This document shows positions 1,794 to 44,991 of a DNA stretch of 64,000 nt, piece after piece. A program made the position numbers and the translations under genes. The stretch is taken from the IMG/VR virus record IMGVR_UViG_3300045988_182866; one strand, written 5' to 3'. Under the pieces are notes generated by a model. The model was not told the origin of the DNA. It was given only the letters and a program-made list of their open reading frames with translations, and made no database searches. This stretch comes from a virus. The stretch's first letter is position 1, and each line of letters begins with the position of its first letter.

Positions 1794-2402
1794 TTAATTA
1801 ATCCATCTAATTATTGGTTCATTTTTTATCTCCTTTTGCCACACATACATACAATAAGCAGCCGCACCACTATTTTTAAAATTATCGGTTCCTTTACCGC
1901 AACCTTGCCTGTTTACATATACATATACATATTTTGGTGGATATTTTTTAAAAAAATTATAACGTTTGGCTGATTCAAGAAAGGTGAGTTTCATAAACAT
2001 AATGACTAAACCATTATTTTTAACAGTTTTTATTGCTTTTTCTGTAATTTCAACTGCATATCTGTAAGGAGGATTTGTAAAAATACAATCAAATTGATTA
2101 TCCCATTTATTAGTTTTTAAAAAATCAATACCAGTTTCTTCCCCATATCCTCTGTCAATTAAATCAGAAGAATAAACTGAATATCCATTTTCTTTTAATA
2201 TTTTGGATATCGAACCTATACCACAGCATGGTTCTAAAATATTATTAGGAATTATTAAATTAGTATTTTTAGCTGCTTTTAAAAATAATTTTATTGATTC
2301 AGGATGAGTACAATAAAAATCATATTCTTCTACTTCAATCTCCTTTTTTCGATGATTTACTGAATAAAATCCTGAATTTCCGCCTGTCCAATCTTTAATC
2401 AT
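1794..2402 (-). CDS. Orphan DNA N6-adenine methyltransferase (small phage-type, motif I then motif IV)
   Basis: EPCCGIGSI (FxGxG-like AdoMet motif I) is followed ~45 aa later by the catalytic motif IV in FTNPPYRY. No restriction endonuclease partner is adjacent. Confidence 0.8.
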   Translation of the reverse strand: MIKDWTGGNSGFYSVNHRKKEIEVEEYDFYCTHPESIKLFLKAAKNTNLIIPNNILEPCCGIGSISKILKENGYSVYSSDLIDRGYGEETGIDFLKTNKWDNQFDCIFTNPPYRYAVEITEKAIKTVKNNGLVIMFMKLTFLESAKRYNFFKKYPPKYVYVYVNRQGCGKGTDNFKNSGAAAYCMYVWQKEIKNEPIIRWIN

Positions 2403-3697: not shown

Positions 3698-3701
3698 AAT
3701 T

Positions 3702-3737
3702 AAAAAAGCTGAATCATTAATTTGATTCAGCTTTTTT
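3702..3737. terminator. Bidirectional terminator hairpin of the AAAAAAGCTGAATCA-ttaatt-TGATTCAGCTTTTTT family
   Basis: 15-bp stem flanked by A6 and T6. It sits between convergent genes and overlaps the stop codon of the 3717..4814 gene. Confidence 0.6.
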
Positions 3738-4814
3738 AATCGCTTCTTGAATTAAAAGTTTTATTTGATCTTTATTTTTCTTCCATTTACTTTCCCAAAT
3801 TTCTATCAATGTAATTCCCCTTTCAATACATTGATTTCTTTTATTTTCATGATAACCCAGATTTCGATCTTCGTGTAATTTATGCCAGTAATCTCCATTA
3901 TATTCAAAGGCTAATTTTAATTCAGGGAGATAAATATCAAGCTCTAATTGATTATCAAGTTGATTTCTAGAATTTTTTATAATTTTTCTTGAATATATCG
4001 AATTAATATATTCAAAAAGTTCTTTTTCACCTTTAGATCTTTTCGAAGCTTTTACACATTTAATACAGCCACTTCCATTTAAATGAATATATGCTCTTTG
4101 TCGAAAGACACCATGCCTTGGACAAATAATATTCACATAATCACGAGCACTTTTATATTCAACTCTTGAATAATCATATTTGTCTCCATGAACTTCTTGA
4201 GCTCTTTTAATAAATTCTTCAGTTGTTAAAAATTGCTTTTCTCTTTTACATTCTGGACATTCATTGCCTTGTAAATGTGACCCTGCATGTTGTCGAAATA
4301 ATCCATGCTTAGGACATATTATTGTTATATGATTTTTTACGCCATTATAAATCACTTTAGAATAATCATAATAATTTCCATGCACTTTTTTAGCTTTTTC
4401 AATAAACTCTTCTCTTGATAAAAGATCTTTTATTTTAGCACAATAAGGACATCCACTTCCATTTAAATGGCTGCCAGCCATTTGTTCAAATTTATGCCCG
4501 CATTTATTACAAATAATCCAAATTTTTGATTTACAATTTACGTATATCGATATTGAATAATTATACTTATCACCATGAACTTTTCTTGCTTTTTCTATAA
4601 ATTTTTCTGTTGTTAACTGTGCCGTGGGAATACATTTAGGACATCCACATCCTCTTAAATGTTCTGATGCTTTTTGCCAAAAATATCCATTCTCAGGACA
4701 ACCAATTTCTATTTTTGCAAGACTACTTTTATATTCAACTCTTGAATAATCATATTTGTCACCATGTATTTCTTTAGCCCTTTGTATAAATTCTTCAGTT
4801 GTTAGCTTTTTCAT
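3717..4814 (-). CDS. Free-standing homing-endonuclease-like protein: 4 tandem ~55-aa zinc-ribbon repeats plus a C-terminal Vsr/DUF559-like PD-(D/E)xK nuclease domain
   Basis: Four repeats of F(I)xxAxxxHGDKYDYSxVxY...IICPxHGxFxQxAxxHLxGxGCPxC. The C-terminus LDIYLPELKLAFEYNGDYWH matches the Vsr-like motif PDIVFPKYRLAIFVDGCFWH. It is a paralog of 8559..9908. Confidence 0.65.
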   Translation of the reverse strand: MKKLTTEEFIQRAKEIHGDKYDYSRVEYKSSLAKIEIGCPENGYFWQKASEHLRGCGCPKCIPTAQLTTEKFIEKARKVHGDKYNYSISIYVNCKSKIWIICNKCGHKFEQMAGSHLNGSGCPYCAKIKDLLSREEFIEKAKKVHGNYYDYSKVIYNGVKNHITIICPKHGLFRQHAGSHLQGNECPECKREKQFLTTEEFIKRAQEVHGDKYDYSRVEYKSARDYVNIICPRHGVFRQRAYIHLNGSGCIKCVKASKRSKGEKELFEYINSIYSRKIIKNSRNQLDNQLELDIYLPELKLAFEYNGDYWHKLHEDRNLGYHENKRNQCIERGITLIEIWESKWKKNKDQIKLLIQEAIKKAESN

Positions 4815-4921
4815 AACTAAACTTTAATTTTATATAATAATTCTCAATTTTATTTGGTACTAAATTAATAGTAAGTGTATTAATGATTTTTATACAATCT
4901 ATACGCTAATAAATAATTACT

Positions 4922-5410
4922 ATGAAAAAGTTTAAAGTAAAAGAACTTAGATTTTCTAATTTACTCGTTGAAGATATAAATGTTCCCAAAAATCTTATTG
5001 TTCGAATTAAGAATATTCCTAGATCTAAAAAGGCTTTACTTGAAGAAGTTGCTAAGAAAATTAGCGAAAAATATGGAAAAGATGTTAAACACTTTATTCT
5101 TGAAGATTTAGAAATAGAAGGGCCAAAGAATTTTGCTAAAAATCCTACTATTACAAAGCGTCTTCAAAAACGTCGAAAAGTTTTGAAAAACTATATTGAT
5201 GAAATAGGTGAAGAAGATAGTCAATTAAGTTATGAAGTTACAAAAGCTATTATAAATGTTTTTGGTGAAAAATTTTTAGACAAATATAGTGTTAATATTC
5301 GCGATCAAATTGAAAAATTTAGTAAAAAAATTGCGGGTCTTAAAACACTTGCTGATAGGCCAAAAGATGATCCTTATAAAAAGCGGTTGGATAACTGGAG
5401 GATTGGTTAA
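4922..5410 (+). CDS. Hypothetical basic protein (162 aa)
   Basis: ORF followed by terminator hairpins. Confidence 0.5.
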   Translation: MKKFKVKELRFSNLLVEDINVPKNLIVRIKNIPRSKKALLEEVAKKISEKYGKDVKHFILEDLEIEGPKNFAKNPTITKRLQKRRKVLKNYIDEIGEEDSQLSYEVTKAIINVFGEKFLDKYSVNIRDQIEKFSKKIAGLKTLADRPKDDPYKKRLDNWRIG

Positions 5411-5420
5411 CCTTTAAAAG

Positions 5421-5454
5421 AAAAAGCTAAGTCATTGATCTGACTTAGCTTTTT
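5421..5454. terminator. Terminator hairpin AAAAAGCTAAGTCA-ttgatc-TGACTTAGCTTTTT (variant of the recurring family with a compensatory stem change)
   Basis: Read from the sequence. Lies downstream of 4922..5410. Confidence 0.55.
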
Positions 5455-5492
5455 CTTTAAATTCTTCTAATGTTAATTTTCTCATATAAATT

Positions 5493-5527
5493 TTAAGGGT
5501 TTCCATAGAAAATATGGAAACCCTTAA
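5493..5527. terminator. Perfect 15-bp-arm palindrome TTAAGGGTTTCCATA-gaaaa-TATGGAAACCCTTAA, likely terminator of the tail sheath gene
   Basis: Read from the sequence. Lies between convergent gene ends. Confidence 0.5.
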
Positions 5528-5555
5528 AATTATTCGGTGTTAATTTAGTGCAGTA

Positions 5556-8402
5556 TTAAGCGCTAAATTCTGTTGAAATCACGCCAGATCTAGAAGCGGT
5601 CAAGTCAATGAGAATGCGTTCTGCACTACGCGTTGGAGCTGCATATGTTGAGATACGCATTACACCGGCATCGATCTCAGTTTCCGTATTATTCCTTTCA
5701 TCGCAAACAAGAACATAAGAATAGATTGCTCGTTGTTCTTGTAGTGCATCAAATGCTGGAGTTAACACATTTGTTACATTCAAACGGGTGTACAAGGTAT
5801 TACCTTCAAACAGCCATTGCTTGGCTGTATCACGCAACAGTTTAAGAATGTAAAGCATTGTTCTTCGGGCAGAAATTTGATCTAACGCTGAGTCGCGCTT
5901 TATCATAGTTCTAATTCCGTACAACATTGTTCCAGAAGAAGGAGATACGATAATCGGATTAAGAGAAATACGATATAAATCATCTCGTTGCTTTTGCTGA
6001 GTAGAGAAGGAAATATCAAGCACAGAACTTAATACACCATTATTCATGCCAGCGGCAGCTTGCCATGGACCATATAAGGCATCCGTAGCAGCAATCTTTT
6101 GAGCGACAAATCCAGAAGCAGGAGCCCAGAATTGAGTACTGTTTACAGGATCTTGTACCTTTAAGAAATACGGATAAACAGCCATATAAGAGGAAGCTAA
6201 TCCATCATATAAATGCCTGTTAGGCCAGTAGATTGAAGTCGAGAAAGAATGCTTAACATTATCCAGAGCAGTATAAGCTGCATTGACTAAGGGCATTCCA
6301 AATTGTTTTTCAATCTTGTTATCCTTGCCTTCGACGGAAATTTGACGAATTGTATCACCAATGAAGAATACATCGCCTCGTCCGCCTTCTTGCTGAGCAG
6401 AAGCTAATTTTAAGAAAGCCGATTGAATAGCTCGATGATTAGCGATCACTTGTTCAGCCGCGGAAGATAAGGTAGACTTACCAGTACGCATATCCGTTAC
6501 ACCTTGAATAACTTTGGTATCATCGAATAATGCAGCTTCTGGATCATATCCATTCGGATATTGCTCCTTAACTTTATCTTGTTCAGTTGTTTGGCCATCT
6601 CCACGATCGGTATCAGCCTTAATTGCAGCCTGGAGCTTTTCTTTATAGCTTCGATAAGCTGCATCCATAGCTCCAACATAGATAGTTCCCATGCCGCCTT
6701 CTAACAAAAGGTCAACGTCATAGAGTTCTTCATTTTCAACTAATTCAAGAGCAGCCTCGATTTTCTTGGGAAGATTACCAATGATTTTAGAAGCATTATT
6801 GGAACGGGCATATAAACCTAACGGATACATGGAATCACCCATTTCAAAGGTCGGATAATCAGTTGGAATACTTTGAAGAACAGCCTTTGAAATACCGGCC
6901 GGAGAAGCCATGATGTCTTCGATGGAACCCGCCATTTCATCATCAGTCAATGCAATGTCAAGCAATTGCTGGGCATAAATACGAACCTTAATCTTCGGAG
7001 AACCGTCAACATATAGTCCGCGAGAATTTAACGCTCCTGAGAAGTTCGGATTAACAAACATGCGAACTAAAGTATCATTAGCCGTTGTATTCTCAATAAA
7101 GAAGTTAACTGCAGATGTAGTATACTTGGAAGTAGTCTGTCGTCCATATTCTAAGGAAGCATTATATCCTTGAGTAATCAGGGCAGAAAGTTTAAGAGCA
7201 TCTCCAGAATTAGTAGCCTGGCGAACCTTAAAGACGCCTACATTTAATGTATCATTCCATTGAGCTCCGGAAATATCAAAATCAGTGATGGATTCTTCCA
7301 TAACCTGAGAGATACATCCTTTCAACGGAGAAGAAAGCTTAAAGTCAAGGCGTTCATTAGGAACAGTCGTATACTGAAGACCCGTAAGACCTTCTTCAAT
7401 AGAAGCAGGAAGCTGAGTTACAGTCTTAAGCTTGCGCACGGCCGCATAAGAAGTACCAGGATCAGAGAAAGCATTATCGGATAACGCAAGATAAAAACCT
7501 TCAAAAAGATCATTTGTTACCGTCTTGCCAAAGTTAAGAGCTAAGAAAGCAAACTGCCCCAAATCGGCAAGCTGAGTAGAAATAGTTTGAGGAATTGCAT
7601 CGGACCAGTTAAATTCTCCAGAACCATCCAAAGCTTGTCCATTTAAAAATCGATAATACTGTTCAATAGAAATATTAAACTGAACAGGTTCACCGATTAA
7701 AAATGTAGCGGAATCTTCATATTCACCTTTGATACCGGCGGAACCATCTGAATAATTCGTAATAGGCTTAAAGGAATTATTAGCAGATTGAACATAATAA
7801 GTTGCAAAGACAGCATTCTGAGTTGGAACATCTGTTACCTCAGTATATTCAGATCCATTCTTAGTATAGATCGTAACCTTATTGGTGAAATTAGTTAACG
7901 GAGTTCCGGCCTGGTCCATATAATATTGAACCTGCACTTTAGCAGCAATATCAGGAGAAACAGGAGTATAAGAAGTAGAACGGGTTACCTTGGTATAAAG
8001 CTGAACAGATGTATCAATACGTTGTTCAGGGGTAGCTTCATTATAAACTTCTTCAGAATCAATAGCATATCCAAGAGCCGGATAAGCAAGAATAGAAACG
8101 GAAGCAGATTTAGTATCTCCTAAGTCTACACCATAAGGAAGTCGGGAAACACTTACATAAGCAGCAGAATTTAATGCTGCGTCTACTGTTGCATAAGAAT
8201 AGCGCTCAGAACTTGTAACAGGTTCTCCGAATATTTCAACATATTCACTGATTGTCGAAACAGAAGTAACTTCAGAAGTAGGTCCTTGTTGGCTGAAAAT
8301 TGGTATAAAGACCGACGTTCCGGCAGACTGCGCCGCTCGTGTCGATTGGTCGCGTTCCAAAATTTCGACGCCCGGGCTGATAATTGTGGGTGTAATTGCC
8401 AT
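5556..8402 (-). CDS. Tail sheath protein (948 aa, T4 gp18-like)
   Basis: The N-terminus MAITPTIISPGVEILERDQS resembles the gp18 N-terminus (SPGIELKE...). The C-terminal region GIRTMIKRDSALDQISARRTMLYILKLLRD...LFEGN resembles the conserved sheath C-terminal domain (GRTL...VRRLVNYIEKSI). Confidence 0.8.
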   Translation of the reverse strand: MAITPTIISPGVEILERDQSTRAAQSAGTSVFIPIFSQQGPTSEVTSVSTISEYVEIFGEPVTSSERYSYATVDAALNSAAYVSVSRLPYGVDLGDTKSASVSILAYPALGYAIDSEEVYNEATPEQRIDTSVQLYTKVTRSTSYTPVSPDIAAKVQVQYYMDQAGTPLTNFTNKVTIYTKNGSEYTEVTDVPTQNAVFATYYVQSANNSFKPITNYSDGSAGIKGEYEDSATFLIGEPVQFNISIEQYYRFLNGQALDGSGEFNWSDAIPQTISTQLADLGQFAFLALNFGKTVTNDLFEGFYLALSDNAFSDPGTSYAAVRKLKTVTQLPASIEEGLTGLQYTTVPNERLDFKLSSPLKGCISQVMEESITDFDISGAQWNDTLNVGVFKVRQATNSGDALKLSALITQGYNASLEYGRQTTSKYTTSAVNFFIENTTANDTLVRMFVNPNFSGALNSRGLYVDGSPKIKVRIYAQQLLDIALTDDEMAGSIEDIMASPAGISKAVLQSIPTDYPTFEMGDSMYPLGLYARSNNASKIIGNLPKKIEAALELVENEELYDVDLLLEGGMGTIYVGAMDAAYRSYKEKLQAAIKADTDRGDGQTTEQDKVKEQYPNGYDPEAALFDDTKVIQGVTDMRTGKSTLSSAAEQVIANHRAIQSAFLKLASAQQEGGRGDVFFIGDTIRQISVEGKDNKIEKQFGMPLVNAAYTALDNVKHSFSTSIYWPNRHLYDGLASSYMAVYPYFLKVQDPVNSTQFWAPASGFVAQKIAATDALYGPWQAAAGMNNGVLSSVLDISFSTQQKQRDDLYRISLNPIIVSPSSGTMLYGIRTMIKRDSALDQISARRTMLYILKLLRDTAKQWLFEGNTLYTRLNVTNVLTPAFDALQEQRAIYSYVLVCDERNNTETEIDAGVMRISTYAAPTRSAERILIDLTASRSGVISTEFSA

Positions 8403-8517
8403 AATATATTTTTAAGTTAAATTATTAAATCTTAGAAAGTTTAACAAAAGATATTTACATTTATAACGGCTAGTTCAGGTTCTATTTTACTTCTTGGATA
8501 AATAAACACTCTTCAAT

Positions 8518-8546
8518 TTAGCACCAAAATAAAATCAGGATAAAAT
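8518..8546. repeat. 29-bp direct repeat copy 1 (TTAGCACCAAAATAAAATCAGGATAAAAT), 12 bp upstream of the HE-like gene start
   Basis: Exact match to 9883-9911. Confidence 0.8.
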
Positions 8547-8558
8547 AATATCCAATTT

Positions 8559-9908
8559 ATGGCAATTAAACGACTTACGACAGAAATTTTTATAGAAAGG
8601 GCCAAAGCAAAACACGGTATAGACAGGTATGATTACTCGGCAACCAATTATACCCATTGTAATAATAAAATTATAATCAAGTGTTTAATACATAATTTAA
8701 TATTTGAAACCTACCCCCATAATCATTTAAGAGGGAATGGAGGTTGCCCTCTATGTGCTAAAGAAGGACGATCTTTATCATGGCAATCTTTTTTAGAAAA
8801 AAGCATCGAAGCTCACGGGCAAAATCGATATGATTATTCATATGCTAAAAAAGAGTATAAAGGAACCAAATCAAAAATTACAATAATATGTAAAAAATGT
8901 GGACATAGATTTGTTCAATTACCTTCTAATCATATAAAAGGCCATGGTTGTATAAATTGTGTAAATTTAGCTAAATCATTTGATAAAAATTTCTTTATTA
9001 AAGAGGCAGAAAAGAAACATGGTATTGGGAGATATGATTACTCAAAAATAAAATATAAAAATTCATATACTCCCATTTATATTATTTGTAATAAATGTAA
9101 TAAAAAATTTTATCAGCAGCCACGAATACATTTAAAAGGAATTGGATGTTCTCATTGTTATTATAAAAGTAAAACATTAACTAAGGAAGAATTTATTAAA
9201 AGCGCTGAAGAAATACATGAAAAAGGAAAATATGATTATTCTAATGTAGAATATATACAGTCTAACATTAAGATTAAAATTAAATGTAATAAATGTAATA
9301 ATATTTTTTGGCAATATCCCCATGAACATTTAAAAGCCAAAGGATGCCGAATTTGTGCAATTAAAGATATTACTGATACAAAAGAAACATTTATTAAAAA
9401 GGCAAAGAAAGTTCATAAGGATTTTTATGATTATTCAAGTATAAAATATATAAATTCTCAAACTTTAATTTATATTAATTGTCCAAAACATGGTTTTTTC
9501 GCACAACGGCCAAATGCTCATCTAAGAGGTCATGGATGTCCGAATTGTGCACTCGCTGCACAAAGATCTCGAGGAGAAATAGAACTTGGAGAATTTATTA
9601 AATCAATTTATTCCAATAAAATTTTAAAAAATTCTAAAACACAACTTGGAAATAAAATGGAATTGGATATATATCTTCCTGAATTAAAACTCGCCATTGA
9701 GTATAATGGCGATTATTGGCATAATTTGAAAGAGGCCAAACATCCTGGCTGCCATGAAGATAAAAGAAACCGATGTAAAGAAAGAGGAATTAAACTTATT
9801 GAAGTTTTAGATACGGAATGGCAAAAGAATAAAGATCAAATTAAAGAATCTCTTAAAAAACAAATTGGAGAACTTATCAAAATTAGCACCAAAATAAAAT
9901 CAGGATAA
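8559..9908 (+). CDS. Free-standing homing-endonuclease-like protein: 5 tandem zinc-ribbon repeats plus a C-terminal Vsr/DUF559-like nuclease domain
   Basis: Five repeats of FIxxAxxxHGxxRYDYS...IxCxKCxxxFxQxPxxHLKGxGCxxC. The C-terminus ELDIYLPELKLAIEYNGDYWH is almost identical to that of 3717..4814. Confidence 0.65.
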   Translation: MAIKRLTTEIFIERAKAKHGIDRYDYSATNYTHCNNKIIIKCLIHNLIFETYPHNHLRGNGGCPLCAKEGRSLSWQSFLEKSIEAHGQNRYDYSYAKKEYKGTKSKITIICKKCGHRFVQLPSNHIKGHGCINCVNLAKSFDKNFFIKEAEKKHGIGRYDYSKIKYKNSYTPIYIICNKCNKKFYQQPRIHLKGIGCSHCYYKSKTLTKEEFIKSAEEIHEKGKYDYSNVEYIQSNIKIKIKCNKCNNIFWQYPHEHLKAKGCRICAIKDITDTKETFIKKAKKVHKDFYDYSSIKYINSQTLIYINCPKHGFFAQRPNAHLRGHGCPNCALAAQRSRGEIELGEFIKSIYSNKILKNSKTQLGNKMELDIYLPELKLAIEYNGDYWHNLKEAKHPGCHEDKRNRCKERGIKLIEVLDTEWQKNKDQIKESLKKQIGELIKISTKIKSG

Positions 9909-9911
9909 AAT
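9883..9911. repeat. 29-bp direct repeat copy 2, encoding the last residues and stop codon of the HE-like gene
   Basis: Exact match to 8518-8546. Confidence 0.8.
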
Positions 9912-9976
9912 GAATATATTTTAAAAAGTTAAAAACATACTTAACTAAGTGCGCAATATATATATATATTAATACT

Positions 9977-11440
9977 ATGAGTAATATTACTGAAGAACAA
10001 AAAGCTGAATTCCTGAAATATTATCCCGACCATGAAGATAAGCTAGAAGAAATTATCGAATACAATTGTTTATCTTCCTGCGAAGATGATCGTATATTTT
10101 GTTTTTATGATGTTAAATTTGATCCGAATAAGTCAACACTAGAAAAGGTTGATTATTTGAATCCAATGGGAATATATAGCAATTTAGTCTGTTATATTGA
10201 ACGAGGAGATATGAGGAGATCTGATAACTCTATCATCTCTTCTATTGAAGAATTAGTAAAAACTATTAAAGAATTTCCTTATGTTATTTTTGATGCAAAT
10301 ACTGCAGTTATTAAAATTCAAGGAGTTATAGAAAATAGTGAAGATCCTGACCTTAGCGGAATTAAAATTAACATTTATAAATTTGATAAAAAGAAAAATA
10401 AATTTATTAATGAACAAGCTGGATTTCATTCTTACCATCATGAATTAAATGATTTTATTGAATTCATTTATCAATTTGTAAATGATGCAATAAAAGAATA
10501 TGTTAGAGTTAGAGGTAAAGACGGTAATAATTATTTCATGCTTCATCCTAATGTCTATAAGAATAATGAAGAAAAACCTGAAAGCAATAATTCAAAATCT
10601 CTTAAATCTATTATAGACGAATGGAAACAGAAGGTTGATAAAGATCTCGTTATGATTGGAGGCGATCTAAGATTTAAGGATGAAATTAAAAATAAAATTG
10701 AGGAAGATAAATTATACCTTGAACGTCTTATTGCAGAAGCTGACCAGCAAAGGGAAGTAATAGAGGAAAATCCTGACAATGATATTGAAGAAAAAATAAA
10801 TCAAGCTATTATTAATGCTCGTAAGGAGCCTCCTGTTGATCTACCGGAAGAACTTCAAGAAGAGCTTATTGAAAGCATGAAAGATTATAACGATTATTTT
10901 CATAATCCAAATAATAAGCTTCGAGGAGAATATTTTGATGATTTAATCGAACAGCTTAATAATTCTAAAAAGAACTGCTGTTTAATGAAACTTAATAAAG
11001 ATACTGCTACTTGGCTTACCGTTACTGATTTCTTTGAAGAACAAGAAGATACGCTTTTAAGCAAGCTTCTTGAATTTGATCCGGTCATTGAAAAACATGA
11101 TGAAAATTATACGTTAATCAAATTTAAACGAGAAGTATTTGACCAGAATAAAGAAAAGATTGAGAAGATTCAACATCAGTATTTTGCCAGGGCTAATTCT
11201 TTTACTGATTTTGATTTTGACCTTGATTTTAAAATAGTTAGTTTAACCAAAGATGAACATAACTTTATCGTTAGTAATTTAAAGAAACATGCAATTATTT
11301 CCTCAAATGCAGAACCTGAATTTAAAGGATTTTTCAGGAATATTGTTCAGTATGCTCCTGAATTAGAAAATGAAGATATTGAATATATCTTTGAGATAAC
11401 TGATAAATGTTTGCCAACATCTGTTAAAAATAGACTTTAA
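9977..11440 (+). CDS. Hypothetical protein (487 aa), cargo gene inserted between the tail tube and sheath genes
   Basis: Long ORF with no recognisable motifs. It is co-oriented with the HE-like gene, on the strand opposite to the flanking structural genes. Confidence 0.55.
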   Translation: MSNITEEQKAEFLKYYPDHEDKLEEIIEYNCLSSCEDDRIFCFYDVKFDPNKSTLEKVDYLNPMGIYSNLVCYIERGDMRRSDNSIISSIEELVKTIKEFPYVIFDANTAVIKIQGVIENSEDPDLSGIKINIYKFDKKKNKFINEQAGFHSYHHELNDFIEFIYQFVNDAIKEYVRVRGKDGNNYFMLHPNVYKNNEEKPESNNSKSLKSIIDEWKQKVDKDLVMIGGDLRFKDEIKNKIEEDKLYLERLIAEADQQREVIEENPDNDIEEKINQAIINARKEPPVDLPEELQEELIESMKDYNDYFHNPNNKLRGEYFDDLIEQLNNSKKNCCLMKLNKDTATWLTVTDFFEEQEDTLLSKLLEFDPVIEKHDENYTLIKFKREVFDQNKEKIEKIQHQYFARANSFTDFDFDLDFKIVSLTKDEHNFIVSNLKKHAIISSNAEPEFKGFFRNIVQYAPELENEDIEYIFEITDKCLPTSVKNRL

Positions 11441-11565
11441 AAATATGATTAGTAAGAAATTACCACCTCTTTGGAAGCAACAACTCGTCTGGTGCTTATG
11501 TAAACTATTGAATATAAATTTTCGAATTTATCCAAATCGGCCCAAAGATGAAAAAGTTGATTAAT

Positions 11566-11600
11566 AAAAAAGCTGAGTCATTAATTTGACTCAGCTTTTT
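11566..11600. terminator. Bidirectional terminator hairpin AAAAAAGCTGAGTCA-ttaatt-TGACTCAGCTTTTT
   Basis: Near-identical to the 3702-3737 hairpin, with compensatory changes in the stem. Confidence 0.6.
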
Positions 11601-11627
11601 CTTTTGTTAGTTATGTAATAAAAACTA

Positions 11628-12194
11628 TTATTGAGCTACAGCAACATTAGATATTCCGTCACTTGTATCATAGTACACATAGGCAAAAGTAACGTCGCAA
11701 GTTACTAGCGCACCGCTCCCATCCTCATAGTTAAATGTGATTGGATTAACATTTCTTATGGAAGCATGACGCAAATTATATGTTACTAAAGGATTAAGTT
11801 TTGAGTCAATTGTACTTATCGACACGTATTGATCTGCGCTTGGAAATCTATAATCACCGGTAGATGTTGTATCATTGAAAGTGATTCGAGAAGCCCGTTC
11901 TAATTTCTGGCGCGCTGTTCCTTCGGCATCCATAAAAAATTTAATCGTATATTCAGAGCTGCCGGTATATTTTACCGAGCCTGGATAATGTACTTCAAGC
12001 CCCATGTATTGTTGCGTTTGATTTACAATTTGACGGGCTGGAAGTTGAGTCGCAGTACAATAAATTATTTCATCACTAGTCAAAGCCAAAGCATCAGTAT
12101 TAACGGCTACAAGACGAAAATTAAAGTCTCGTAAGAACTGGCGTTTTTGAGCTTGGGAAATGAAATCACGAATTCCTGGGATATTTCCGTTCAT
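11628..12194 (-). CDS. Tail tube protein (T4 gp19 family)
   Basis: IYCTATQLPARQIV matches gp19 FQCKATALPAGIV. The C-terminus VTCDVTFAYVYYD matches gp19 FEVTLALDYWE. The size is similar to gp19. Confidence 0.6.
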   Translation of the reverse strand: MNGNIPGIRDFISQAQKRQFLRDFNFRLVAVNTDALALTSDEIIYCTATQLPARQIVNQTQQYMGLEVHYPGSVKYTGSSEYTIKFFMDAEGTARQKLERASRITFNDTTSTGDYRFPSADQYVSISTIDSKLNPLVTYNLRHASIRNVNPITFNYEDGSGALVTCDVTFAYVYYDTSDGISNVAVAQ

Positions 12195-12230
12195 ATATCT
12201 CTATTTAGATCAACTAAATATTAAAACATA

Positions 12231-13205
12231 ATGGCTAAGAAGATAGGTCCAATTCCAAGTTTTCTCAATAAGATCTCTAATAATTGGGGTCTATCTTTTA
12301 TTTTTACTAAAATATGGGGAATTACTTTTCATCCGTCCAGAGGATTAAATTCTTTGGCTAGTTCCATTCAAAATGTTCTTACCAAATATGATGATATAAA
12401 TGATTTTCTTTCTTTTATCAATTCAGATGGAAACATTTATCGAAATATTTTAGGCAATAATGAGGCAATTTCAAATAGAATCGCTGAAATTGAAAGTTTT
12501 ATTTTAGCTAATAAAATTTCTATTCCGAATGAAAATGTCAGTATTTCATTCCCAGCTTCTGTTCAAATTCCTAATGCCGGAGGGTTAATTCAGGGAAGAG
12601 TAGGAGAAGGACGTCGTTCTAATTTTAACGATTTGTCTATTACATTCCTTGATACTAACCGAGAATTAGTTGAATATATTATTAAACCATGGATTATTGC
12701 CGTTGCACATCAAGGCTTAATTGAAGATCCGCAACTGGATAATTTAAAAGCAGATATTAAATGCTATTTCTTTGCAAAATCTTCTCCTAATTTTCAAGTA
12801 AAAAGAAATGGCGAACGATTAGTGCAAACTTCATTTTATCCTCAATATACCAATTCACAAAATTTGACTACTCAACCATATGTCTGGGGATCTAAGTCGA
12901 CGGAATATATGGTTTCGAAAGCCAATGAAGAACAGCCGTATCTTAGGAAAATTATTACTTTTAGAGGTTGTGTTCCGCTTTCAATTCCTGATAAATCTTA
13001 CAACTATGCAGGAGATATGGGAGCTGATGAAATGATGACTCCGATTAAATTTTCCTATGAATGGTATGAAGTTCAGGAAATGGCCGGAAAACCGTTTTCT
13101 TTAGGAGATGCTCTTGTTACTGAGGGGAAAACGACAACTTTGCCAACTATATATGATAATAGTATCGACCCCGAAACAAGTCTAAGAGGCGGAAATATAG
13201 TTTAA
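12231..13205 (+). CDS. Structural protein, possibly a gp19-family baseplate tail-tube initiator (gp48/gp54-like)
   Basis: First gene of the long + strand late operon. The C-terminus KFSYEWYEV weakly resembles the tube-family C-terminus. Confidence 0.35.
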   Translation: MAKKIGPIPSFLNKISNNWGLSFIFTKIWGITFHPSRGLNSLASSIQNVLTKYDDINDFLSFINSDGNIYRNILGNNEAISNRIAEIESFILANKISIPNENVSISFPASVQIPNAGGLIQGRVGEGRRSNFNDLSITFLDTNRELVEYIIKPWIIAVAHQGLIEDPQLDNLKADIKCYFFAKSSPNFQVKRNGERLVQTSFYPQYTNSQNLTTQPYVWGSKSTEYMVSKANEEQPYLRKIITFRGCVPLSIPDKSYNYAGDMGADEMMTPIKFSYEWYEVQEMAGKPFSLGDALVTEGKTTTLPTIYDNSIDPETSLRGGNIV

Positions 13206-44952: not shown

Positions 44953-44991
44953 GCTGTGGAATATTTAAAGTACACTTAAATAAAGTTACGC

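Follow-up and report, generated by a model that had tools for sequence, protein, structure and literature searches.

A perfect 29-bp direct repeat brackets a homing-endonuclease-like gene beside the tail sheath gene of an uncultured T4-like phage

The tail locus, the bracketed gene and the repeat

We investigated a stretch of 64,000 nucleotides from the IMG/VR virus record IMGVR_UViG_3300045988_182866 (the whole stretch is called the window below), in which a perfect 29-bp direct repeat brackets HE2, a free-standing homing-endonuclease (HE)-like gene lying between the tail sheath gene and an open reading frame (ORF) named ORF487. To judge from the window, L009 and L024-L030, the phage is an uncultured T4-like one of ~195-210 kb with 31% G+C. 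It is common in human-gut metagenomes; in the metagenome collection, 654 indexed blocks contain ORF487 exactly as in the window, and ERR636373 / ERZ918900 is one example of a sample with a genome of the window's type. The 50,697 phage records of GenBank gave no nucleotide match to positions 5000-12500 and no close relative, and the sheath protein is only 28-35% identical to T4-like sheaths, so that no annotated relative was usable. Relatives were found by scanning the metagenome collection with the sheath N-terminus, which gave eight close ones; individual loci are designated below by their locus ids (L003, L009 and so on). The features of the locus are collected in Table 1. The first-pass annotation, made from the sequence alone, had placed the site between the tube and sheath genes, which is roughly right: the site adjoins the sheath gene, while ORF487 separates HE2 from the tube gene.

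The N-terminal part of HE2 consists of five tandem treble-clef zinc-finger modules (Pfam DUF4379; DUF723 in relatives) with the pattern '...F(I/L)xxAxxxHGxxYDYS...C.xC....H..G.GC..C', and the C-terminal Vsr-like (EDxHD-type) nuclease domain carries ELDIYLP...AIEYNGDYWH. The protein falls in PHROG 559/681/3339, annotated as endonuclease or homing endonuclease (E = 1e-78), and has 1125 homologues at E <= 1e-20, some of which are named very-short-patch-repair endonuclease. When a profile of the C-terminal domain, made from 23 homologues, was compared with the PDB, the sole match was the catalytic domain of I-Bth0305I (3r3p, E = 3e-6). In this profile D40, E51, G54 and H58 are invariant and N53 is more than 90% conserved. 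The active-site Asp, Asn and His (D in ELD, N in EYNG and H in YWH) align with I-Bth0305I, and the invariant Asp and His of the profile align with D196A and H213A, the residues mutated in the I-Bth0305I crystal construct (PMC3239194). The last Asp of the EDxHD motif is variable across the family of HE2. As judged from these alignments, the nuclease domain of HE2 is homologous to that of the homing endonuclease I-Bth0305I.

HE2 is the only gene of the insert. The inserted DNA encodes neither a transposase nor an integrase, an integrase is likewise lacking among the neighbouring genes, and terminal inverted repeats are absent. The insert contains no methyltransferase, HE2 thus standing alone and not as part of a restriction-modification (R-M) system.

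The repeat, TTAGCACCAAAATAAAATCAGGATAAAAT, has exactly two copies in the window, both on the plus strand. No further match with up to 3 mismatches was found in the window, none of the 12-mers of the 29-mer occurs elsewhere in it, and 100 dinucleotide-preserving shuffles gave zero matches. Viral contigs of 107-127 kb contain two copies each, and 185,579 reference genomes (GTDB) contain none. The first-pass annotation had judged an exact repeat of this length unlikely by chance, with which the shuffles and the count of two agree, and the case that it had named against its own proposal, a common dispersed repeat, was not found in the window, the contigs or GTDB. Both copies are exact in 21 occupied loci from independent samples and assemblers (four of these locus ids refer to IMG/VR contigs that also appear under another id), and the repeat is therefore not an assembly artefact.

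A gap of 12 nt separates the left copy from the ATG of HE2, and the right copy contains the codons I-S-T-K-I-K-S-G, the TAA stop (9906-9908) and 3 extra nt; the coordinates agree with the first description of the repeat in both respects. The repeat is 32 nt long if one mismatch is allowed, and with one 1-nt gap it extends over 37/38 nt (8515-8551 versus 9880-9917). Further imperfect matches on both sides had also been proposed. In the window, the 30-nt flanks of the copies are not similar above chance (shuffle test, p = 0.58 and 0.83), and a longer decayed duplication was rejected for this reason, although L016, described below, suggests that ~5 nt per side belong to the repeat. The core contains no stem-loop and no internal inverted-repeat arms. 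The left junction makes a hairpin, GGATA-aaataa-TATCC, at 8539-8554, half of it 29-mer and half insert, 4 nt before the start of HE2.

Table 1. Features of the HE2 locus in the window, and the alleles found at the site
Feature	Position	Strand	Size	Remarks
Left repeat copy	8518..8546	+	29 bp	Continuous with native sheath-side spacer; left flank and core equal the L009 empty site
Unique inserted DNA	8547..9882	+	1336 bp	With one repeat copy, 1365 bp
HE2, free-standing homing-endonuclease-like gene	8559..9908	+	449 aa	Assigned by Pfam, PHROG and PDB profile
Allele-specific interior of HE2	8639..9822	+		Differs in relatives, ~50% amino-acid identity
Right repeat copy	9883..9911	+	29 bp	Continuous with native ORF487-side spacer; encodes the last 8 codons and stop of HE2
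Tail sheath gene	5556..8402	-		Left neighbour of the insertion site
ORF487	9977..11440	+	487 aa	Right neighbour; ATG ~200 bp from the sheath ATG in empty-site genomes
Tail tube gene	11628..12194	-		Next after ORF487
HE1, paralogue of HE2	3717..4814	-	365 aa	Insertion absent in L019; no long flanking duplication; negative control
Allele A			449 aa	Copy spacing 1365 bp; allele of the window
Allele B			377 aa	Copy spacing 1149 bp; 6700-7668 of L003
Allele C			312 aa	Copy spacing 954 bp; allele B minus one zinc-finger module; 4000-4938 of L023

The empty site and the descent of the insertion

A single copy of the 29-mer at an empty site had been predicted, as a test, by the first-pass annotation, and such a site was found in L009, a contig of 195,065 bp that is 95-97.5% identical to the window across the neighbourhood. 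In L009, which has a single 29-mer, the sequence of window positions 8403-8546 is joined directly and seamlessly to that of 9912 onward, which is the junction expected for a precise deletion or an empty site (...CTCTTCAAT[29-mer]GAATATATTTT...), and the missing segment measures exactly 1365 bp, i.e. the unique insert and one copy of the repeat. In the outgroup L019-L021, whose ORF487 homologue is 74% identical and whose flanking DNA is 81-86% identical, the sheath and ORF487 homologues lie 198 bp apart. The outgroup spacer aligns on both sides and presents one diverged homologue of the repeat region, TTTGCACCTAATTTTTTCAAGGAAATTTATATATT then GAATATAT.

Therefore, the empty site of L009 together with the single homologue in L019-L021 indicates that the 29-mer is native spacer DNA, the single-copy state of which is older than the group, and that the second copy arose with the insertion. 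The proposal of a target-site duplication made by insertion of the HE gene is supported by L009 and L019 in this descriptive sense; a staggered cut of the transposase style is unlikely.

Each of the four flank trees places L009 inside a set of occupied genomes, and the right-flank variant GAATATACTTT is common to the empty L009 and to the occupied L011 and L032. The nesting would fit a secondary precise deletion and, since the flank trees also mix alleles A and B, would fit equally well an empty allele that was retained while its flanks recombined. This intermixing by recombination makes the flank phylogenies uninformative for the polarity of gain versus loss. A target-site 'resistance' mutation in the empty allele was considered and rejected, as the T>C change that L009 shows 8 nt to the right of its repeat is shared by the occupied L011 and L032.

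The age of the insertion was judged from L016, the left flank of which diverges more than that of any other ingroup genome. Between L016 and L003, identity is 93.4% in the allele B gene and 94.3-94.4% in the flanks. Considering that the gene is as diverged as the flanks, the insertion is old, the gene having been inherited vertically with its flanks since before the deepest sampled split; an independent re-insertion in L016 is ruled out on the same ground.

L016 also differs in the repeat itself. TCAAT precedes both copies, which yields a 34-bp perfect repeat, and the third position of AATAT after the core is C in both copies (AACAT and GAACAT). In the 20 other occupied loci, TCAAAA stands before the right copy and the post-core position is T in both copies. 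These parallel changes point to gene conversion between the two copies as their best explanation and, taken with the vertical descent of the gene, constitute indirect evidence that the repeats recombine. That the repeat is a recombination substrate, the second proposal of the first-pass annotation, thus has indirect support from the paired changes of L016 and from the nesting of the empty L009 among occupied genomes.

The 3' end of HE2 is read from the right copy. Among the best 120 homologues listed, the tail ISTKIKSG is present only in two clusters, both from this locus, and the stop lies 69 residues after the E.NG..WH motif in HE2 versus 58-65 in other members. The frame is shifted in L016 by a 1-nt difference immediately ahead of the right copy, so that the 29-mer is translated there as LAPK*. 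As the same 29-mer is read there in another frame, the tail of HE2 is incidental and dispensable. The inserted gene lacks a stop codon of its own; it runs 27 nt into the duplicated spacer and uses the first stop found there.

Alleles, neighbouring genes and promoter-like motifs

Three alleles are found at the site (Table 1), and for all three the unit length equals the spacing of the repeat copies. Alleles A and B are identical up to ~8638 and again from ~9823, the first ~80 nt of the ORF, its last ~90 nt and both repeats being common to them, and the allele crossovers fall in motifs conserved among the paralogues. Shared ORF ends around an interior of only ~50% amino-acid identity indicate that the interior was swapped by recombination within these motifs, a cassette-like allelic replacement at a fixed locus. 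L032 (2501-3514, corresponding to window 8559-9908) has an allele A with CGA>TGA at codon 338, upstream of the nuclease domain. Truncated proteins of this type, which lose the nuclease domain, form a cluster of 32 sequences, and a decaying copy thus circulates in the population.

Empty, intact, replaced, truncated and frameshifted states therefore coexist at the site, which is the picture expected for a selfish endonuclease gene. The life cycle of homing endonucleases comprises invasion, fixation, decay and loss (the Goddard-Burt model), and precise loss is normally its rare step. The population studied here resembles this cycle in holding empty sites together with intact, nonsense-mutated and frameshifted-tail genes; it differs in the built-in perfect direct repeat, which would ease a scarless loss.

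Loss of a paralogue is visible next to the HE2 locus. What is left of a deleted paralogue at 5445-5496 (minus strand) is its 5' stub, MRKLTLEEFKEKAKSDQ*, now joined to the terminator hairpin of ORF162. L011, L025 and L027 have an intact gene of ~490 aa at this position and L019 a 439-aa version. The deletion junction falls within a shared run of ~10 nt, TTAGCTTTTT, and the loss is, by these comparisons, repeat-mediated. Near-identical terminator-like hairpins (AAAAAAGCTGAaTCAttaattTGAtTCAGCTTTTTT) are present at 3701-3736, 5419-5454 and 11565-11600. HE1 and the extra paralogue of L011 both have their 3' ends (tail ...KKAESN*) encoded by one arm of such a hairpin, so that these two genes also finish inside a flanking element. 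ORF162 (4922-5410; region 4815-5444) is missing in L014 and L016, where one endonuclease gene joins the HE1 body to the upstream region of the stub paralogue; this fusion looks like the product of unequal recombination between two tandem paralogues.

A methyltransferase-like gene of 202 aa (1794-2402, minus strand; region 1695-2408), which belongs to PHROG 799 and has its own hairpin, is present in the window and in L016 and is absent in L009 and L014, with 46 bp in its place. The gene has a terminator on one side and a TTTAAATA motif on the other, and no duplication flanks it.

The 29-mer begins and ends exactly where a sigma-70-like pattern, TTAGCA-N17-TAAAAT, does. Neither core varies across 20 loci, compared with ~12 substituted columns out of 65 in the adjacent right spacer. 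Promoter-like matches are common in this AT-rich DNA (18 found, 12.2 expected), and the outgroup keeps no such promoter spacing. If the 29-mer were a promoter, its duplication would give HE2 and ORF487 one copy each, which we put forward as a lead only. The spacer upstream of ORF487 also contains an (AT)n run (9955-9970) that has 6 nt more in the window than its counterparts in L003, L004 and L009, and the spacer is far more variable than the 29-mer.

The 29-mer was rejected as the late promoter of the phage, since the motif enriched upstream of genes is TTTAAATA (often CTTTAAATA), which does not occur in the 29-mer. This motif is ~23-fold enriched upstream of genes. It is found at 103, 2411, 14872, 24615, 28857 and 32291 on the plus strand and at 44969 on the minus strand, and is intergenic in 7 of 8 copies; six intergenic copies lie 6-22 nt before a start codon and the seventh 60 nt before one. 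No Shine-Dalgarno sequence is visible at the start codons. TTTAAATA is a candidate late promoter, in place of the T4 motif TATAAATA, and would imply very short leaders. The absence of TATAAATA from the window was dismissed as a striking feature, because a maximal-order Markov model predicts just 1.9 copies.

Origin of the duplication and its significance

We consider that the two 29-mers are native intergenic DNA, duplicated when the HE gene was inserted a single time, in an ancestor of the phage group, into the spacer that separates the sheath gene from ORF487, and that they now serve as a recombination substrate; we give this account a probability of about 0.8. The insertion would have been a one-off illegitimate or break-repair event in the pool of replicating phage genomes, with the left and right junctions at least 29 bp apart on the target. 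After it, the interior was exchanged for those of other family members, zinc-finger modules were lost, and the gene was knocked out in some genomes. The perfect repeats would at present be a substrate of the phage recombination system, giving rise to gene conversion. The repeat can probably also delete the gene cleanly, and such a deletion would leave an empty site open to re-invasion.

The duplication itself is unlikely to come from ordinary homing or from the cut of the enzyme. In ordinary homing, the gene is copied by break repair and no duplication is left. I-Bth0305I cuts with a 2-nt 5' overhang at its insertion site (PMC3239194), and an overhang of this length cannot yield a 29-bp duplication. 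Nor is a long flanking duplication present at HE1, whose site is empty in L019, or at the methyltransferase-like gene; the duplication is therefore better regarded as a feature of this one event, and it was rejected as a hallmark of the endonuclease family or of the phage.

Several points weigh against this account of a single duplicating insertion. The mechanism of duplication is not observable from sequence, and the two other indels just named, lacking a duplication, show no general mechanism. The evidence for gene conversion comes from one lineage, L016. No circle or tandem junction, defined as ...CTTATCAAAA[29-mer]AATATCCAATTTATGG... (i.e. ...ATCAAAA[29-mer]AATATCC...), was found in IMG/VR. 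L009 is the one empty-site genome of the ingroup and could carry a retained ancestral allele, recombination having scrambled the flank trees, and the 24 + 9 contigs whose ORF487 or sheath protein is identical to that of the window yielded no empty variant.

An alternative that overlaps in part with this account makes the repeat the vehicle of mobility. The gene and one 29-mer would form a cassette that excises as a 1365-bp circle and re-integrates by homologous (Campbell-type) recombination, the two repeats being the product of integration. In such a circle, a single 29-mer would end the ORF, by supplying its final codons and the stop, and at the same time lie 12 nt ahead of the ATG. The exact span of the sigma-70-like pattern, the invariance of the cores beside a substituted spacer and the exchange of sequence between the copies are in favour of it, as is the precedent of PeSL-flanked genes, which make mini-circles with no dedicated recombinase (PMC2839356). 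However, the 29-mer is not a dispersed family, which leaves one place only for integration, and the first duplication is left unexplained. Neither the absence of a circle or tandem junction in IMG/VR nor the divergence of the gene in step with its flanks, which speaks against frequent re-insertion, is in its favour, and the argument from the promoter pattern is weakened by the frequency of such matches in AT-rich DNA and by the outgroup spacing. We regard this alternative as possible but unlikely. In its widest form, the 29-mer would make the HE gene a recombinase-free cassette, a 1365-bp circle in which the 29 bp both complete the ORF and provide a promoter-like element ahead of it, able to enter any genome with a single-copy spacer and to leave it without a scar, and thereby provide a second route of mobility beside break-induced homing; we hold this form to be rather improbable.

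A true target-site duplication would require that the strands were nicked ~29 nt apart, the gene joined and the gaps filled in, as in transposons, casposons and the duplication of CRISPR repeats. The sharp edges of the duplication, past which the flanks are not significantly similar, would fit such a staggered break. The parent fold of the nuclease, Vsr, nicks DNA, I-Bth0305I nicked most sub-optimal sites on one strand only (PMC3239194), and the five DNA-binding modules of HE2 could span a long site. In a radical variant, the zinc-finger/Vsr family itself would make long target duplications by nicks tens of bases apart. Nevertheless, the characterised member of the family leaves a 2-nt 5' overhang (PMC3239194), the paralogue HE1 was inserted with no long duplication, the insert has neither terminal inverted repeats nor a strand-transfer enzyme, and the repeat is 34 bp in L016, its length thus not being fixed. 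Duplication by a staggered break is very unlikely on this balance.

An identical direct-repeat core with a single copy at the empty site is also the classical signature of att sites, and Furuta et al. list site-specific integration among the classes to exclude (PMC2853133). The 29-mers would then be the attL/attR cores left by a recombinase encoded elsewhere in the phage or in the host. This is hardly credible, since the insert and its adjacent genes encode no integrase, internal inverted-repeat arms are missing from the core, the element consists of one 1.3-kb gene, and ORF termini common to three alleles fit homologous exchange better than cassette integration. Least credible of all is a gene-derived repeat, the left copy being the leftover 3' end of a deleted upstream tandem endonuclease copy: stubs of deleted paralogues do exist in the genome (e.g. 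5445-5496) and paralogues are prone to unequal recombination, but no gene-like sequence lies upstream of the left copy, the spacer around the single homologous copy of the outgroup can be aligned on either side of it, and, among the 120 homologues listed, the tail is confined to this locus.

Among known patterns, the closest is the 'insertion with long target duplication' of R-M genes (Nobusato et al. 2000, as cited by Furuta et al. 2010, PMC2853133). As at the HE2 locus, a nuclease gene with no transposase or integrase lies between genome-unique direct repeats that are single at the empty site of a relative, and the repeats often span a start or stop codon (PMC2853133). The length threshold of the class is >30 bp, with 46-423 bp in the tables (PMC2853133); the repeat studied here measures 29 bp when perfect, 32 with 1 mismatch, 37/38 with a gap and 34 in L016. 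The class differs also in comprising R-M systems in bacterial chromosomes, whereas HE2 is a lone homing-endonuclease-like gene in a lytic-type phage, so that the resemblance is one of pattern and not of cargo. Furuta et al. suspect DNA breakage as the common cause and propose that the repeats allow later amplification or loss (PMC2853133).

PeSL cassettes (PMC2839356, PMC4122927) are similar in that short direct repeats flank optional genes in T4-like genomes. In PeSL cassettes, recombination between the repeats deletes genes or gives mini-circles with no dedicated recombinase (Arbiol et al. 2010, PMC2839356; Comeau et al. 2014, PMC4122927); at the HE2 locus an empty site and signs of conversion between the copies are seen, and IMG/VR contains no circle junction. 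The coincidence of the 29-mer with a sigma-70-like promoter pattern is a further likeness. PeSL are, however, a dispersed family of promoter and terminator stem-loop elements at many loci, mainly in hyperplastic regions, whereas the 29-mer is confined to one site within the conserved tail module, lacks a stem-loop and represents a duplicated local target. Membership of the PeSL family was ruled out because the 29-mer is not dispersed.

With the I-Bth0305I/EDxHD family, which includes the Hef-type genes of T4-like phages (Taylor et al. 2011, PMC3239194), HE2 shares a homologous nuclease, a free-standing position in a phage genome and presence/absence polymorphism. The N-terminus of the HE2 type differs, with 3-5 tandem treble-clef zinc fingers (DUF4379/DUF723) in place of NUMOD/HTH, and so does the flanking duplication, which classical homing does not leave. 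The population pattern of empty, occupied and decayed sites is consistent with a site-specific cut in the gene-less allele and with homing of HE2. In contrast to the target-site duplications of transposons, the repeat is accompanied by no transposase and no terminal inverted repeats, and its 29-34 bp are variable rather than short and fixed.

No evidence for a new kind of mobile element was found at this locus. It presents a well-documented insertion scar around a free-standing Vsr-like endonuclease gene and adds a phage example, with a homing-type gene, to a pattern known from other nuclease genes. Free-standing HE genes are usually thought to move by scarless break repair, and here such a gene stands between perfect target duplications, so that the pattern of long target duplication is extended from bacterial R-M genes to a phage homing-type nuclease gene. 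The locus offers a simple system for asking if short repeats let selfish nuclease genes leave and re-enter genomes. If the gene and its repeat do behave as a cassette, precise loss in the homing cycle would be a built-in property of the element.

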